From assembly GCA_947074145.1 (NCBI GenBank), contig CAMTOJ010000008.1:32557-96556 (forward strand): DNA of 64,000 nucleotides, read 5' to 3'. Numbering within the stretch: position 1 is the first letter of the stretch; every line of letters begins with the position of its first letter. The DNA comes from an uncultured Bacteroidales bacterium. GTDB lineage: Bacteria > Bacteroidota > Bacteroidia > Bacteroidales > JAUNSR01. The notes beneath the pieces were generated by a model, which ran no database searches, was not told the origin of the DNA, and saw only the letters and a list, made by a program, of their open reading frames with translations. Position numbers and translations under genes: made by a program. This document shows positions 1 through 54,251 of this stretch, one piece after another.

Positions 1-1277
1 ATCATCAAGGGTAAAAACAGATCAAATCCACCGGTCAGTTCGGCACTAAGGAATATTCCCATTAAAGGAGCATGCATCACTCCTGCCATTACTCCCGCCA
101 TACCCATAACAGCAAAATTCTTTTCTGGCAAAAACAAACCGGTATCAAAATAATTGATAGCAAAAGCAAAAAGGAAACCGGCCATATTACCGATGAATAA
201 ACTTGGAGCAAAAGTACCGCCGACGCCTCCTCCTCCGTTGGTGGCTGCGGTTGCAAAGACTTTGAATAATATAATCAGAGATATAAAAAGACAAAATATC
301 CAGAAGTTGTCTTTATATTCATAAAAGAAACTTCCGATGGTCATATTTGTCGAATTACCATTATAAATGTCAAGTATCGCATCATATCCTTCACCGTAAA
401 GAGGGGGAAGAATAAAAATCAGGACACTTAATACAATAGATGCTATGATAAACTTATTCCAATGATTTTTAAGTTTCCCAAGTCTATCTTCAGCCCAGAA
501 CATAATACGGGTGAAGTATAGAGAAACAAATCCGCAAAAAATCCCCAATAGAATAACATATGGGATTCTTTCAGCCATGAAGGGATCGGTCTGTTGGAAA
601 TTGAATTGCGCCAAAGGACCTGAAAATATATAAGAAACCGATGCTGCGGTTACGGCTGATATAAGAAGTGGCATTATGGAAAATGCAGTCAAATCGAGCA
701 TTAAAACTTCAATAGTAAAAAGAAGTCCTGCAATGGGGGCCTTAAATATTCCGGCTATACCGGCTGTAGCACCACAACCCAAAAGAAGCATCATTGTTCT
801 TTGGTCCATGTTAAACAAACGTCCCAAATTGGAGCCTATTGCTGCCCCGGTAAATACTATGGGGGCTTCCGCTCCTACCGATCCTCCAAATCCGATGGTG
901 ACAGAACTGGCAAGTACTGAACTATACATGTTGTGAGGTTTAAGAATACTTTTTCTTTGCGATATAGCATAAAGTATTCGAGTCACACCATGGCTTATAT
1001 TATCTTTCACAATATATTTTACATATATTCCTGCGATAAGAATACCAACTACAGGATACAACAAATAAAGATAATTGGCTTTATCGGCACTGAAATGTGA
1101 AGTAAGAAAGTTCTGAATGAAATGAATAATAAATTTTAATATAAGAGCAGCTCCGGCCCCTAAGAGTCCTGTTATGAAACTTAATATAAGGATGAAGTTT
1201 TTCTCACTTATATTCTTTTCACGCCATAGAATGACTCTTAATAAAATATCATTATTGATAAAAAATTTTTTAAGCAT
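1..1277 (-). CDS. ClC-family chloride channel / H+-Cl- antiporter; 3' end runs off the left window edge
   Basis: Absent from the ORF track because it has no stop inside the window. My reverse-strand translation from the ATG (complement of 1275-1277) reads MLKKFFINNDILL...GFGGSVGAEAPIVFTGAAIGSNLGRLF...GIFKAPIAGLLFTIEVL...GGGGVGGTFAPSLFIGNMAGF...GMAGVMAGVMHAPLMGIFLSAELTGG, which are typical ClC motifs. The frame is consistent at both ends. Confidence 0.85.
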   Translation of the reverse strand, partial: MLKKFFINNDILLRVILWREKNISEKNFILILSFITGLLGAGAALILKFIIHFIQNFLTSHFSADKANYLYLLYPVVGILIAGIYVKYIVKDNISHGVTRILYAISQRKSILKPHNMYSSVLASSVTIGFGGSVGAEAPIVFTGAAIGSNLGRLFNMDQRTMMLLLGCGATAGIAGIFKAPIAGLLFTIEVLMLDLTAFSIMPLLISAVTAASVSYIFSGPLAQFNFQQTDPFMAERIPYVILLGIFCGFVSLYFTRIMFWAEDRLGKLKNHWNKFIIASIVLSVLIFILPPLYGEGYDAILDIYNGNSTNMTIGSFFYEYKDNFWIFCLFISLIILFKVFATAATNGGGGVGGTFAPSLFIGNMAGFLFAFAINYFDTGLFLPEKNFAVMGMAGVMAGVMHAPLMGIFLSAELTGGFDLFLPLM

Positions 1278-3476: not shown

Positions 3477-5102
<1,626 letters not shown>

Positions 5103-7274: not shown

Positions 7275-7330
7275 GACTTGTTATGAATATTATTTGAAAA
7301 ACATATTAATATTTTTTGAAAAATATACCA

Positions 7331-12147: not shown

Positions 12148-14445
12148 TTATTTCGATTTTGTCATTTTATTTTGTACTGCAGCATCAATCACCGCAACAG
12201 CAACAACATTAACAATATCTCTTACCGAACAATCATTGCCTGTAAAATGGATAGGTTTTTTCAATCCCATTTGGATAGGTCCGATAGACTCGCAAACATC
12301 CATTTCCGACAACATCTTATAGGCTGTATTGGCGCTACTTAGATTAGGGAAGATAAGAGTATTAACATCAAGACCTGTAAGTTTATTAAATGGATATGTT
12401 TTATCTCTTAAGCTTTTATTCAATGCATAATTGACCTGCATCTCTCCATCAATTTTTAGATCAGGATACTCTTTCTGCATAATACTTACAGCTTCATGAA
12501 CTTTCAAAGGACTTCCCTCTGTATCTGCACCGAAGCTTGAATAAGAAACCATTGCCATAACCGGTTCATCAGCAAAGAATCTCACAGCATCCATTGTTAA
12601 TCTTGCGACATCAACAAGTGTATCGGTTGAAGGATGTCGGTTTATTAATGTATCTGCAATATATAGTGATCCTTTCTTTGTATTAAGAATATTAATTGCA
12701 CCGAAATGTTTGAATCCGTCTCTTATTCCGATAACATCTTTAGCTATTTTACAAGTTTCCGAATATTTACTTTGTATACCTGTGATAAATGAATCAGCCT
12801 CGCCTGATTCCACCATCATCATACCAAAATAATTAGCATCATACATTTTCTCAATAGCATCAACATAAGTATAGCCCTCTCTTGCACATTTTTCGGCAAG
12901 TTTACGTGCATATTCCTCTCGTTTAGAAAGATTTGATTCTGAACGGAAGTGAAGAATATCCATGCCTTCAAGCGAAATACCTTCCTCTTCTGCAACTCTG
13001 TGAATTTGATCTACGTTTCCAAGAAGAATCGGATAACATATACCCTCTTCAAGAGCCTGAGCTGCTGCTTTAAGCATATTGACATGAGTCGCCTCAGCAA
13101 AAACCACCTTTTTAGGTTCTGCTTTAGCCATATCATAAAGTCTTCTTACCAATTTATTGTCATATCCCATCAATTGATTAAGACTATCTTCATACGCTTT
13201 CCAGTCAGTAATGTTTTTTCTTGCCACACCCGAATCCATTGCTGCTTTTGCTACAGCCGACGAAACTTTAGTTATCAATCGTGGATCCATTGGTTTTGGA
13301 AGAATATATTCTTTACCAAAATGAAGTTTTTGCATTCCATACGCAGCATTTACAACATCAGGAACAGGTTGCTTCGCCAAATCGGCAATTGCATATACGG
13401 CTGCCAACTTCATATCTTCATTTATAGAAGTGGCGCGTGTATCTAAAGCCCCTCTAAAGATATATGGAAAACCAAGCACATTGTTGATCTGATTAGGATA
13501 ATCACTTCTACCTGTTGCAAAGATAATATCAGGACGAGATGCCATAGCCTTGTCGTATGATATTTCGGGATTTGGATTTGCACATGCAAAGACAAGTGGA
13601 TTATTATTCATTGATCTCACCATATCTTCAGTTAATACATCAGCTACAGAAACCCCAAGGAATATATCTGCACCCTTCATCGCATCAGCTAATGTATTTA
13701 TATCTCTTCTATCGGTAGCGAATTCTGCTTTTTCCGGAGTTAATCCGACGCGATCTGATCTTATCACGCCTTTGGAGTCGACCATTACGACATTCTCCTT
13801 CTTTATCCCAAGTTCCATATATAGTCGTGTACATGAAGATCCTGCAGAACCGGCACCATTTACAACTAATTTGCAATCACCAATATTTTTGCCTGCAATT
13901 TCCAATGCATTCAAAAGGGCAGCTCCTGAAATAATTGCTGTTCCATGCTGATCATCATGCATTACCGGAATATCAAGCTCTGCTTTTAATCTTCTTTCTA
14001 TTTCAAAGCATTCGGGAGCTTTAATATCTTCAAGGTTTATCCCTCCAAAGGTTGGAGATATTGCTTTTACGGTTTCTATGAATTTTTCGGGATCATTTTC
14101 GTTTACCTCTATATCAAATACATCAATTCCGGCAAATATTTTAAACAATAGTCCTTTACCCTCCATTACAGGTTTTCCGGCTACTGCTCCTATATTTCCC
14201 AAGCCAAGGACAGCTGTTCCATTAGAGATTACTGCGACAAGGTTACCTTTAGCAGTATAGTCATATGCTGTTTCTGGATTTTTTTCTATTTCAAGACACG
14301 GAACAGCCACTCCCGGTGTATAGGCTAATGATAAATCCGTTTGAGTCGTGTGAGGCTTTGTTGGTACAACTTCTATTTTTCCGGGTTTTCCACACTTGTG
14401 ATACAGTAAGGCTGCTTCTTCTTTCGAGTTCTTATTATCTTTCAT
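12148..14445 (-). CDS. maeB: NADP-dependent malic enzyme (malic enzyme domain fused to a phosphate-acetyltransferase-like domain)
   Basis: 765 aa. N-terminal half has malic-enzyme motifs (LSLAYTPGVA, FGGINLEDI, VVNGAGSAG). C-terminal ~330 aa is PTA-like. Confidence 0.94.
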   Translation of the reverse strand: MKDNKNSKEEAALLYHKCGKPGKIEVVPTKPHTTQTDLSLAYTPGVAVPCLEIEKNPETAYDYTAKGNLVAVISNGTAVLGLGNIGAVAGKPVMEGKGLLFKIFAGIDVFDIEVNENDPEKFIETVKAISPTFGGINLEDIKAPECFEIERRLKAELDIPVMHDDQHGTAIISGAALLNALEIAGKNIGDCKLVVNGAGSAGSSCTRLYMELGIKKENVVMVDSKGVIRSDRVGLTPEKAEFATDRRDINTLADAMKGADIFLGVSVADVLTEDMVRSMNNNPLVFACANPNPEISYDKAMASRPDIIFATGRSDYPNQINNVLGFPYIFRGALDTRATSINEDMKLAAVYAIADLAKQPVPDVVNAAYGMQKLHFGKEYILPKPMDPRLITKVSSAVAKAAMDSGVARKNITDWKAYEDSLNQLMGYDNKLVRRLYDMAKAEPKKVVFAEATHVNMLKAAAQALEEGICYPILLGNVDQIHRVAEEEGISLEGMDILHFRSESNLSKREEYARKLAEKCAREGYTYVDAIEKMYDANYFGMMMVESGEADSFITGIQSKYSETCKIAKDVIGIRDGFKHFGAINILNTKKGSLYIADTLINRHPSTDTLVDVARLTMDAVRFFADEPVMAMVSYSSFGADTEGSPLKVHEAVSIMQKEYPDLKIDGEMQVNYALNKSLRDKTYPFNKLTGLDVNTLIFPNLSSANTAYKMLSEMDVCESIGPIQMGLKKPIHFTGNDCSVRDIVNVVAVAVIDAAVQNKMTKSK

Positions 14446-14675
14446 AATTTCTATTTATTAAGGCCATAATCTTATTTGATTAAGGCTACAATTTTACAAA
14501 AAATATTTAACTATTATTAGAAATCATTACAATAAAAGCCTTTTTTTTGACAATATATAATTCAATGTGGTTTATGTTATATTATCAAAAGGTAATAGAA
14601 TTAAATTTTCAAAGATCATACATATATTATTTATATCCTTAATAGATTATATTTTCTGTTTAGATACGTATATCC

Positions 14676-37781: not shown

Positions 37782-37865
37782 ATCCCTTGCCACTTAATAC
37801 CTTTTCAATAAGCTTTCTAATATAATCCTTAGAATACTCTTATACTTTTCAATTTATCGATTTTC

Positions 37866-37907
37866 AAAGACTCCTACCCTTTTTTGAAAACTCTCTACCC
37901 TTTTTTC
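37866..37907. repeat. 2 x 21-nt tandem repeat
   Basis: aaagactcctacccttttttg / aaaactctctacccttttttc. The 12-nt core ctaccctttttt is exact at 37874-37885 and 37895-37906. Confidence 0.8.
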
Positions 37908-37990
37908 ATTCCATAGAATTGAGCAAAAGTTAGTTTGCTAAAACAAAATTATTTATCTGCTACGACCGCATAGTTTGTCAGTTATGAACG

Positions 37991-39813: not shown

Positions 39814-40347
39814 CTAGGAAGGATAACAAAAGAAGTAACCGAAAGCTCCGGAGATAACAATCATCAAGATTGGGTGTAGCTTAATAAATTTAACGGCTAT
39901 AAAAACAACTCCGAAAATCAAAAAACTCTTCCAATCCTGAAAGTTCTGTGAGTTCATTAGCATTAAACCGGCTGATGCAACAAGTCCGACAATTGCGGGA
40001 CGAAGCCCTGAGAATATGGTATCTACCCAAAGATTGTCTTTGAATTTTAGTATTATTCTGCTTACAAAAAGCATAAGTATGAATGATGGTAAACAGACTG
40101 AGAATGTCGCTATTACCGATCCCCAAACTGAACCGCTGGCGGTATATCCTATATATGTTGCACTGTTGATGCCTATTGGCCCGGGGGTCATCTGTGAGAC
40201 TGCGACGATATCGGTAAATTGTGCATCTGAAATCCATTGATGTTTTTCAACAACTTCGTGTTGTATAAGTGAAAGCATAGCATAGCCTCCACCGAAACCA
40301 AAAATGCCGATTTTGAAGTAAACCCAGAATAATTGAAGAAATATCAT
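39814..40347 (-). CDS. chromate transporter, short-chain CHR family (second half of a pair)
   Basis: 177 aa with IGIFGFGGGYAMLSLIQHEVVEKHQW, the typical CHR domain start. Confidence 0.88.
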   Translation of the reverse strand: MIFLQLFWVYFKIGIFGFGGGYAMLSLIQHEVVEKHQWISDAQFTDIVAVSQMTPGPIGINSATYIGYTASGSVWGSVIATFSVCLPSFILMLFVSRIILKFKDNLWVDTIFSGLRPAIVGLVASAGLMLMNSQNFQDWKSFLIFGVVFIAVKFIKLHPILMIVISGAFGYFFCYPS

Positions 40348-40365
40348 AGTTTTTTATTTTTTAAT

Positions 40366-40468
40366 AATGTTGCTCGTGTTGCTTCGCTGGTAATGTCGCT
40401 CGCGTTGCTTCGCTAGTGATGTCGCTTGCTGCGCTTTGCTGGTAATGTCGCTCGCGTTGCGAGCTGGT
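40366..40468. repeat. tandem array of four 26/25-nt G+C-rich units
   Basis: Units at 40366-40391, 40392-40417, 40418-40443 and 40444-40468. Approximate consensus aATGTCGCTCGCGTTGCTTCGCTgGT. Confidence 0.9.
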
Positions 40469-40529
40469 AACGAGTTAAATATACTTCATGTAATAAATAA
40501 TAGTTAACTCATCCCCTTATCACTTTGTC

Positions 40530-40612
40530 ACTAGCGCAGCGTATCACTAGCGCAGCGTATCACCAGCGAAGCGACATCACTAGCGAAGCGACATCACCAG
40601 CGAAGCGACATC
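40530..40612. repeat. tandem array of five 16/17-nt units, inverted relative to the 40366-40468 array
   Basis: actagcgcagcgtatc x2 (40530-40561), then accagcgaagcgacatc / actagcgaagcgacatc / accagcgaagcgacatc (40562-40612). The reverse complement gatgtcgcttcgctggt equals the left unit minus 9 internal nt. Confidence 0.9.
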
Positions 40613-41159
40613 ACCCCCTCCTTTTCAATAACATCCTAAACACCGCCAAAGCCGCAGCACCAAGAATAATATAAACCGGAGAAACGCCAACAAGCCATAT
40701 CAATAAAGCTCCGACTATTGGGATCCAGCAATTACGCCATGTTATTTTAGAAGATTTAGCGGTTGTAAATACAGGGATTACGATAAGCGCCACCACAGCC
40801 GGACGAATTCCGTTGAATATCGCTATCATATAAGGTTCGTTATATATACGAGTAAAAAACAGAGCAATTGCAAGAATCATTACGAATGAAGGTAGTACTG
40901 TACCAAGAGTTGCAGCAAGAGCCCCTTTAAAACCGGCTTGCTTATTTCCTGTAAAAATTGAAATATTAACAGCCATGATACCGGGTAATGACTGAGATAC
41001 CGCCAATGCATCAATAAACTCCTCTTTACCGAGCCAGCTTTTCTTTTCGACAACCTCTTTTTCTATTATCGAAATCATTGCCCATCCCCCTCCGAAGGTG
41101 AATGCACCGATCTTGAAGAAAACTGAAAACAGATCCCAGAGTACTTTTAATCCTTTCAT
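40611..41159 (-). CDS. chromate transporter, short-chain CHR family (first half of a pair)
   Basis: 182 aa with IGAFTFGGGWAMISIIEKEVVEKKSW, the CHR domain start. Confidence 0.88.
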   Translation of the reverse strand: MKGLKVLWDLFSVFFKIGAFTFGGGWAMISIIEKEVVEKKSWLGKEEFIDALAVSQSLPGIMAVNISIFTGNKQAGFKGALAATLGTVLPSFVMILAIALFFTRIYNEPYMIAIFNGIRPAVVALIVIPVFTTAKSSKITWRNCWIPIVGALLIWLVGVSPVYIILGAAALAVFRMLLKRRG

Positions 41160-41628
41160 TCTTAGTTATGCTATTAATTTAGATTAATCATATATCGAAT
41201 CATAATAATGTCTATTTACATAAATAGAGATTATTATGACAATTAAAGATTTTGCAGAGACAAAAATAATCAAAAACTTACTCGTCACAGACCCATTAGA
41301 TTATTTAGTCACTTTATGTCTATATTTAACAATAATAATTATAAATATGTTTCGTATTAAAAAACATATTTTATCGTTTTAATTTTGAATAATCAATTGG
41401 CGATATATTAAATATCATTTTAAAGTCTTTTGGGAAATATTTAGGATAAAAGAATCACACATTATATTTCTTATCCTAACATAATTCAATAAGTAGAATC
41501 CGTTATTATTATCTTAACTCTTAAATATCACATAAACTTCAAGAGTAACAGAATCGTCAAAACAGGTAATAATTTAGTCAAATACATAGAGTACTATTAT
41601 GTCGTTTTTGTTTATCATTCAATATGGC

Positions 41629-53655: not shown

Positions 53656-54183
53656 ATGAAGATTGAAAAATATATAAAACCATTACTTCTTGCTTTTGCA
53701 ATAGTTTTCTCATTTAATATTTTTGCCCATGATTGCAATGCTGATCAAAATGAGAGACGTAAATGGCATGAGGATTTTAAAATTAAAAAGCAGGAATTTC
53801 TAATTAAAAAACTTGATCTTACTCCCTCTCAGGCAGAAGCTTTTTTTCCTGTTTATGATGAACTTCAGAAAAAGAAGATGGAGATTCAGAGAAAAGTCAG
53901 GACTCAATTTAAGAAGATAATGGATAATCCTAAAGAACATACAGATAAGGATTATTTTGAGATGGCTAGTGCAATGGCTAATGCAAAGGTTAAAGAGGCT
54001 GAACTTGAGGCTGAGTATTTAAAGAAGTTTCAACCATTAATTCCGGCTAAAGCTTTAATGAATTTACAGTTTGCTGAGCTTGAATTTAATAAATCAATGA
54101 TGCAAAAGGGTCCCGGTCCTCATCAACCACGAAATAATAAAGATGGTAAATCCGAAGGTAATCAGAATAAAACAAAGAAATAA
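53656..54183 (+). CDS. periplasmic Spy/CpxP-like (LTXXQ motif) protein
   Basis: 175 aa with a signal peptide, an LDLTPSQAEAF motif, helical Lys/Glu-rich sequence and a basic tail. Start lies 3 nt after the upstream stop. Confidence 0.5.
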   Translation: MKIEKYIKPLLLAFAIVFSFNIFAHDCNADQNERRKWHEDFKIKKQEFLIKKLDLTPSQAEAFFPVYDELQKKKMEIQRKVRTQFKKIMDNPKEHTDKDYFEMASAMANAKVKEAELEAEYLKKFQPLIPAKALMNLQFAELEFNKSMMQKGPGPHQPRNNKDGKSEGNQNKTKK

Positions 54184-54202
54184 TTTATAAAAACTCTTTT
54201 AT

Positions 54203-54251
54203 AAGCCATTATAAAAACTTTATTTAAAGTATTTATAATGGCTTTTTTTGT
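54203..54251 (+). terminator. intrinsic terminator after the sigma/anti-sigma/LTXXQ operon
   Basis: aagccattataaa (54203-54215) pairs with tttataatggctt (54232-54244), followed by T6. Confidence 0.8.

Follow-up and report, generated by a model that had tools for sequence, protein, structure and literature searches.

Small interspersed repeats have been studied in depth in Proteobacteria and streptococci. To our knowledge, they have hardly been described in Bacteroidales. BrickBuilt was the sole example from this order found in the literature. It is a MITE (miniature inverted-repeat transposable element) found in Porphyromonas gingivalis, with 19 elements in one genome and 1 to 22.8 repeats (PMC4596501). 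Among the families of other bacteria, repetitive extragenic palindromic (REP) elements have GTAG ends that often provide a TAG stop codon (PMC3733652). REP, Correia, ERIC, and BOX repeats affect mRNAs with which they are co-transcribed (PMC3049150). The summary given in PMC12548453 describes a minimal effect on expression for MIRU elements inserted at start codons. The present work concerns a repeat element in the genome of an uncultured Bacteroidales bacterium. It was found in a stretch of 64,000 nt of contig CAMTOJ010000008.1, which is called the window here, between chrA1 and chrA2, the two half-genes of a short-chain chromate transporter (CHR) pair. The element is probably a single copy of a non-coding foldback repeat that is G+C-rich and dispersed. 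The best reading is that it belongs to a small dispersed family that is REP/BIME-, BOX-, or MITE-like.

The repeat between the chrA half-genes

Both half-genes of a short-chain CHR pair are expected to be required together, and they normally lie 20-40 nt apart. In relative L169, whose ChrA1 is 87% identical, the half-genes are separated by 19 nt, and in relative L170 (ChrA1 76% identical) by 42 nt. There is no repeat in either spacer. Because of this, the repeat between the chrA halves is a lineage-specific insertion, as had been proposed from the sequence of the window alone. The C-termini of ChrA1 are nearly equal in length (…RKFFRR* in the relative and …LLKRRG* here), and the relative's short spacer is similar to an A-rich stretch 3' of the element. 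This places the extra 245 nt essentially at the old stop codon. It follows that a split transporter pair can tolerate a structured insertion of this size.

An artefact of assembly, or a chimera, could be suspected, since these arrays cause breaks and false joins in short-read assembly (L032-L037). Many short-read contigs (L032-L036) stop 25 nt into the array. However, the chrA element and its 263-nt spacer are identical in four independent assemblies, with both chrA genes flanking, and a 126.8-kb contig matches the window at 100% identity. An artefact at this locus is therefore next to impossible.

The element is made of two arrays that face each other. There are four units of 26/25 nt in the left array (40366-40468) and five units of 16/17 nt in the right array (40530-40612). 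The coordinates and unit sequences that the sequence-only reading gave for the 247-nt repeat at 40366-40612 all match. When each arm is read from its outer end towards the center, which is the natural register of the units, the chrA units begin with the head GTGAT, GTGAC, or GTAAT and end with the tail GCTG or GCTA. The heads obtained in the register analysis were GTGAT, GTGAC, GTAAT, GTAAG, or GTAAC. The units of the family can be described as a GTGAY or GTAA-type head, a body of two to three NCGCT-like blocks, and a GCTR tail. Short units are 16/17 nt long, and the long units of 25/26 nt are a short unit with an internal block of about 9 nt. This relation, which had been noticed earlier, holds, as can be seen from aatgtcgct[cgcgttgct]tcgctagt compared with gatgtcgcttcgctagt. 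The two arms are inverted copies of one motif family, again as first read; the 24-nt arms show 96% and 92% complementarity (pairs I1-I8).

On the mRNA strand, the order of the element is the 17-nt units, GTGATACGCTGCGCTA twice, GTGACAAA, the AT-rich core, four inverted 25/26-nt units, and AAAAAAUAAAAAACU-AUG. The 17-nt units are, in order, GG-GTGATGTCGCTTCGCTG, GTGATGTCGCTTCGCTA, and GTGATGTCGCTTCGCTG. The ends of the element are GTGATGTCGCT... on one side and a degenerate ...AGCAACATTAT on the other. The 7-bp inverted repeat reported for the core (40472-78 / 40504-10) was confirmed, and it can be lengthened to arms of 18 nt with 78% complementarity.

The period-26 and period-17 arrays have by far the two top Tandem Repeats Finder scores of the window (Table 1). 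Their G+C content is 60-62%, compared with 33% for the window. The 17-mer GATGTCGCTTCGCTGGT, with up to 3 mismatches (<=3), occurs 3-4 times in the element and nowhere else in the 64 kb. Shuffled sequence gave an expectation of 0.01 matches, and 0/100 shuffles reached 4.

The element also supplies the end of chrA1. The TGA stop of this gene (40611-40613) is formed by bases 2-4 of the first GTGA-headed unit. The last unit had been said to end on the stop codon; it does overlap it, but it does not end there. Each GTGA head is an overlap of a GTG start and a TGA stop, so that the short arm encodes a chain of mini open reading frames (ORFs) with stops in all three frames. The chain follows the chrA1 stop directly and reads VMSLRW*, VMSLR*, VMSLRW*, VIRCASDTLR*, and VTK*. 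A ribosome relay from chrA1 to chrA2 along these mini-ORFs was considered and rejected. The GTGA chain breaks off at the core, and no start codons are present in the long arm. The view that the repeat is non-coding is supported. The AGTGAT/GTGAC variants weaken the idea that GGTGAT pairs with 16S rRNA at its 3' end.

The spacer is predicted to fold on the mRNA strand at -125.7 kcal/mol, versus -78.5 +/- 5.2 kcal/mol for shuffles (z = -9.1). The hairpin first suspected from the letters is far more stable than shuffled sequence. It is predicted to start 1 nt after the chrA1 UGA and to close about 26 nt before the chrA2 AUG. The individual 17-, 16-, 26-, and 25-nt units fold at 0 to -1.7 kcal/mol, no better than shuffles. 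Only one unit, GTGACTCGCGCTTTGCGCG of the second locus described below, makes a 5-bp hairpin (GTGACT-CGCGC-TTT-GCGCG).

Such a hairpin might have been selected as a cis-regulatory RNA that processes, stabilizes, or translationally uncouples the chrA cistrons. The predicted structure is very stable, its base abuts the stop codon, and the element is identical in four samples. Influences on co-transcribed mRNAs are also on record for REP, Correia, ERIC, and BOX (PMC3049150). However, relatives have no element in the orthologous spacer, so it is not a conserved feature of the chrA pair. The opposite strand folds about as well, because any inverted repeat does so. A sister element is present in an unrelated operon. 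Rfam gave no match at the gathering score for the whole window, and for the element itself at E <= 10 only chance-level hits (E 0.36-9). A selected regulatory hairpin is thus considered unlikely. An intrinsic terminator or attenuator between chrA1 and chrA2 would agree with the large GC-rich hairpin, and the element at the second locus is followed by TTTTT. At chrA, however, the mRNA tail AUUAUUAAAAAAUAAAAAACU is A-rich and not U-rich. Promoter and terminator scans were at chance level, with no terminator site at the element, and a terminator here would separate half-genes that are expected to be needed together. This possibility is very remote.

The N-terminus of the 177-aa chrA2, MIFLQLFW, is conserved in relative L169 (MIYLQLFW), which favors this start. 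In public gene calls, chrA2 is 154 aa instead and starts 23 codons late, probably due to the upstream repeat. The positions of the features are collected in Table 1.

Table 1. Positions of the chrA genes, the parts of the repeat element, and other features (window coordinates unless a contig is named).
Feature	Position	Strand	Remarks
chrA1, upstream Chromate_transp half-gene	40611..41159	(-)	182 aa; ORF list; PF02417, E 1e-50 to 1.1e-49
chrA2, downstream Chromate_transp half-gene	39814..40347	(-)	177 aa; ORF list; PF02417, E about 2e-55 (2.3e-55)
chrA1-chrA2 spacer	40348-40610		263 nt
Whole short-unit arm	40532..40614	(-)	period 17, 5.2 copies
Short-unit arm, 17-nt units	40614-40598, 40597-40581, 40580-40564	(-)	GTGATGTCGCTTCGCTG/A; Tandem Repeats Finder and register
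Short-unit arm, 16-nt units	40563-40548, 40547-40532	(-)	GTGATACGCTGCGCTA, twice
8-nt head-only unit	40524..40531	(-)	GTGACAAA; unit parsing
AT-rich core	40469..40523	(.)	imperfect hairpin 40472-40489 / 40493-40510 (inverted repeat I9)
Long-unit arm	40363..40468	(+)	head-first on + strand, inverted relative to short arm; period 26, 3.7 copies; pairs I1-I8
Long-arm outermost unit, degenerate		(+)	AATAATGTTGCTCGTGTTGCTTCGCTG
Long-arm unit	40390-40415	(+)	GTAATGTCGCTCGCGTTGCTTCGCTA
Long-arm unit	40416-40441	(+)	GTGATGTCGCTTGCTGCGCTTTGCTG
Long-arm unit	40442-40466	(+)	GTAATGTCGCTCGCGTTGCGAGCTG
A-rich leader between element and chrA2 start	40348..40362	(-)	AAAAAAUAAAAAACU-AUG on mRNA; uninterrupted; cf. 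19-nt AT-rich spacer of L169
Tandem array, period 26	40365-40460		3.7 copies; score 129 (Tandem Repeats Finder)
Tandem array, period 17	40528-40614		5.2 copies; 91% matches; score 118 (Tandem Repeats Finder)
Mini-ORF chain	40531-40614	(-)	directly after chrA1 stop
48-aa ORF just upstream of chrA1	41236-41382	(+)	opposite strand to chrA1; gene-called in all public contigs; no Pfam match
AT-rich two-copy direct repeats	7282-7327, 14443-14486, 37861-37908, 53771-53810, 54183-54238		periods 21-24 nt; scores 59-75; sequence unrelated to the element
Ruminococcus elements	L005 ~985-1200; L010 ~4405-4700; L022 ~2262-2560; L008 ~1-105		start GTGATTCGCTTCGCTAGTGATGTCGCT

A second element in the same organism

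A second element of about 600 nt was found in the same organism, between a DUF4254 gene and a Glyco_transf_9 gene (L159, L160, L162, and L163). It was reached by following the upstream gene (DUF4254) of a joined contig (L037/L161; Logan SRR7610129 contig 7020) to its native site. In this contig, GH3-DUF4254 is joined to chrA2 via shared units and chrA1 is skipped. The join must be a chimera made in assembly or else a true recombinant of the two elements.

The second element begins inside the TGA stop of the upstream gene (GAG-GTGATTCGCG…). Its first arm contains GTGAY units of 8, 16, 17, and 19 nt, including 4 or 5 copies of the identical GTGATGTCGCTTCGCTG. The 8-mer GTGACAAA of the chrA element recurs in it, and L159/L160 carry GTGACAAA GTGACAAA. 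After a short center, the second arm holds 10-14 inverted units of 25/26 nt (reverse complement GTAAGTCGCTCGGCTACGCTCGCTG). The last part of the element is …GCGACATCAC; the next ATG lies 37 nt beyond, and TTTTT follows the element. Its termini are inverted, one being GTGAT(T/G)... and the other ...GCGACATCAC, and it is predicted to fold with z = -9.1.

At both loci, the short units adjoin the upstream stop and the long inverted units adjoin the downstream start. The upstream gene takes its TGA from the first GTGA, and the downstream gene keeps an intact leader and start. A co-occurring relative whose DUF4254 is 89% identical has an AT-rich spacer of 126 nt with no array. One organism has the two-arm design in two operon-internal spacers that are unrelated, and in each of them the design is lineage-specific.

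The second locus bears on whether the chrA repeat is a plain array of variable number tandem repeats (VNTR), which arose by slippage in place at the chrA spacer, is immobile, and is unrelated to other loci. The units are indeed head-to-tail, and unit number and order vary between samples at the second locus (L159, L160, and L162). At chrA, unit number is the same in four samples. An origin by local slippage does not account for the same 17-mer and the same two-arm design at an unrelated locus. The arms are 60% G+C in a background of 33% G+C, the relatives' spacers are AT-rich with no seed sequence, and related units are present in other taxa. Slippage alone is thus quite improbable as the origin of the chrA repeat. 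Variation in unit number between strains had been named beforehand as a sign of an incidental microsatellite. It was found at the second locus, but it does not reduce the element to a microsatellite, because the family is dispersed. The second locus could instead be of use as a hypervariable strain marker.

The inverted direct-repeat arrays flank an AT-rich core at chrA, which could suggest inverted iterons for a protein at an origin-, partition-, or operator-like site. However, a BLAST of the core matches only the chrA locus, and the center of the second element is different, GC-containing and not AT-rich. The core does not belong to the repeat family. Furthermore, the location is inside a two-gene unit with no replication or partition gene nearby. 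The mixed unit lengths of 8, 16, 17, 19, 25, and 26 nt are unlike those of iterons, and a BLAST of the element against plasmids and phages gave no match. A protein-binding array is highly improbable. A BLAST of the element against all complete E. coli genomes also gave no match, the scan of viral contigs gave 0 matches, and a literature search for the unit sequences returned only an unrelated primer. A CRISPR array is ruled out, as the units abut without spacers. The junction GCTGGTGA has 7/8 bases of the E. coli Chi hotspot, but GCTGGTG has only 3 copies in 64 kb and is not enriched, and a role as a recombination hotspot was rejected.

The chrA repeat would have arrived in one of two ways: a small non-autonomous element inserted at the 3' end of chrA1, or the site recombined with another copy. 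The lack of a target duplication is the trace expected of a single-strand mechanism of the HUH/RAYT type. Slippage and unequal recombination would afterwards lengthen and shorten the arms. Selection may have retained the insertion, since it provides its own TGA and leaves the A-rich leader of chrA2 free. It may be tolerated because it carries its own stop codon and folds back. In the transcript, the insertion would be largely looped out by the predicted hairpin between the chrA1 UGA and the chrA2 AUG. Most likely, the element is a passenger, selfish or neutral, that would have side effects on the chrA1-chrA2 transcript, and it is probably not a dedicated regulator. By analogy with REP, BOX, ERIC, and Correia repeats (PMC3049150), likely effects could include a barrier to 3'-exonucleases that protects the upstream cistron, a target for double-stranded RNases, or reduced translational coupling.

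A number of observations weigh against a mobile element of a dispersed family. There is no visible direct repeat that would mark a target-site duplication in the flanks AGGAGGGG|...|TAAAAAAT at chrA or GGAAGAG|...|TTTTTACC at the second locus. Gene calls with Pfam annotation, covering the window and a further 19 kb, include no transposase or RAYT, and no empty site was seen within the species, so that the element is only putatively mobile. About 83 kb of contiguous sequence holds one copy, and two loci are documented in the organism; from the single copy, the copy number may be low. The sample differences at the second locus may partly come from short-read collapse or assembly artefact, and the L037 join could also be partly a short-read assembly artefact. 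The 17- and 26-nt chrA units are non-palindromic, whereas a REP is an imperfect palindrome of 20-40 nt. Finally, the idea that looping-out preserves coupling is weak, because translational coupling is reported to be lower when strong structure directly follows a stop codon (PMC12548453).

In practical terms, the element breaks short-read assemblies, can make chimeric contigs, and shifts gene-start calls, leaving chrA2 23 codons short.

A different repeat is present in the spacer after DUF4254 in a Bacteroidales relative whose DUF4254 is 84% identical. It is a classic GTAG-headed REP-like hairpin (L176 3215-3270, L177 2615-2725, and L178 2745-2795), present once in L176, once in L178, and twice in L177. 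Its sequence on the reverse strand is GTAG-AGACGGAC-RGTC-TGTCCGTCT. Units of 8 nt, GTAACAAT or GTAATAAT, come before it, and these head-only units are reminiscent of GTGACAAA in the chrA element.

Related arrays in other taxa

Genomes of known species were scanned with a 20-mer spanning the unit junction. The source genome is outside the scanned collection. There were 26 matches, and only those in Ruminococcus and Prevotellaceae are arrays. Prevotellaceae RUG378 has an array of seven 17-nt units, GCTTAGCTGGTGTTGTC. In Ruminococcus, arrays were found in two genomes, with three loci in one of them. All of these start with GTGATTCGCTTCGCTAGTGATGTCGCT, and two start at or adjoining a stop codon. 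The rest of each Ruminococcus element consists of successive small GC hairpins whose loops are 4 nt long (for example, TTAC, TGAC, TAAC, and TTGC), and one of the elements ends …GCATCAC-TTTT. They look like a dispersed repeat family of that genome.

Most of the 20-mer matches are not repeats. They belong to a coding motif of a P-type ATPase-like gene and to other genes. The 20-mer GCTTCGCTGGTGATGTCGCT is a conserved coding stretch of a gene in Planctomycetota and Verrucomicrobiota, with matches within L001-L026 (e.g., L003, L004, L006, L013-L015, L019-L021, and L023-L025). From a nearby GDGxND motif, this gene looks like a P-type ATPase. The stretch yields false positives in pattern scans.

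In a scan of metagenomes, most of the matches listed are unrelated tandem repeats of 16/17 nt that contain GCTRGTGAY. About six contigs among those listed are family-like (L039, L082, L104, L105, L124, and L130). These have 62-67% G+C and carry GTGAC/GTGAT-NCGCT-NCGCT-G arrays. The array starts in a TGA stop in L082, L104, and L130, an inverted ATCAC/GTCAC arm is present in two of the six, and L105 holds the 17-mer of the chrA element exactly. A profile of the unit dimer retrieves exactly the Ruminococcus, Prevotellaceae RUG378, and six high-GC metagenome loci. One metagenome (Ga0126342_*) has dozens of contigs of 40-47% G+C that are dense in 17-nt arrays of GTGATGTTGTTGTGCTG, including L043, L051, L054, L064, L089, L091, L098, and L102. 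The source of these contigs may be non-bacterial, and the unit profile matches their arrays weakly.

Near-identical GTGAY-NCGCT-NCGCT-G/A units are thus found in a Bacteroidales bacterium of 33% G+C, in Prevotellaceae, in Ruminococcus, and in bacteria of 62-67% G+C. Across these taxa the arrays tend to start exactly in a TGA stop and are often paired with an inverted array. It is conceivable, though doubtful, that the GTGA-headed arrays form an undescribed cross-phylum class of REP-like elements. If they do, they might share a mobilizing enzyme, e.g., an unrecognized HUH/RAYT-like nuclease that cuts at GTGA. Alternatively, they might share a constraint from translation termination, in which GTGA gives serial stop/start overlaps with stops in three frames. 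Cross-phylum similarity, if real, would point to an unrecognized mobilization system or to a rule for landing sites.

Comparison with known repeat families

The chrA element has much in common with REP, BIME, and REPIN. It is made of short G+C-rich extragenic units with a conserved head of 4-5 nt, and it overlaps a gene only at the stop codon. Direct and inverted unit clusters form long hairpins, which are predicted here (z = -9.1). There is no target duplication in either case. The head gives the neighboring gene its stop, GTAG becoming TAG in REP (PMC3733652) and GTGA becoming TGA here. A few units of the second locus consist of a head and a 5-bp hairpin, as in REP. The possibility of an undescribed REP/BIME-like family, raised by the sequence-only reading, is strengthened by the second locus in the same organism and by the relatives in other taxa. 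A REP proper can be set aside, as the units are non-palindromic and have the head GTGA and not GTAG. The heads here are GTGA/GTAA, and none is GTAG/CGTC. Unlike REP, the arms are true head-to-tail minisatellites. REP occurs in tens to hundreds of copies per genome and is associated with RAYT, whereas two loci were seen here and no RAYT was found in the window and flanks. REP families are also usually lineage-specific, in contrast to the near-identical units across phyla.

As in a MITE, there are terminal inverted repeats at both loci, with a degenerate end at chrA. Unlike in a MITE, no target-site duplication is visible at either locus. A parent insertion sequence with matching ends is not known, and the element had no match in plasmids or phages. 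BrickBuilt is similarly an intergenic, spacer-less minisatellite of Bacteroidales that is dispersed, varies in unit number, and has small inverted ends (PMC4596501). However, BrickBuilt repeats one 23-nt unit in the same orientation throughout, has a leader and a tail, and lies 49-591 nt from genes (PMC4596501). The chrA element has two inverted arrays, of 16/17- and 25/26-nt units, is without leader or tail, and starts inside a stop codon.

The pneumococcal BOX element is likewise a modular interspersed repeat with a variable inner tandem module, a predicted stem-loop, and co-transcription in operons (PMC3049150). It is built as boxA-boxB(n)-boxC, in which A pairs with C and the repeated module lies outside the stem (PMC3049150). 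In the chrA element, the repeated modules themselves are both arms. MIRU elements, as summarized in PMC12548453, are dispersed minisatellites between operon genes whose insertion at gene boundaries limits damage to expression. The GTGA heads of the chrA element give overlapping GTG-start/TGA-stop mini-ORFs, which is another likeness to MIRU. According to the same summary, MIRU inserts at start codons and has an ORF coupled to the downstream gene (PMC12548453). In contrast, the chrA element has a stop-codon site and unit lengths not divisible by three, and it lacks an ORF chain to chrA2. It resembles a VNTR or minisatellite in its head-to-tail units and in the copy number that varies between samples at the second locus, which is possibly an artefact.

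The element is a small interspersed intergenic repeat that lies outside any named family. Its closest counterparts in behavior are REP, BIME, and REPIN, and its nearest precedent in Bacteroidales is BrickBuilt.

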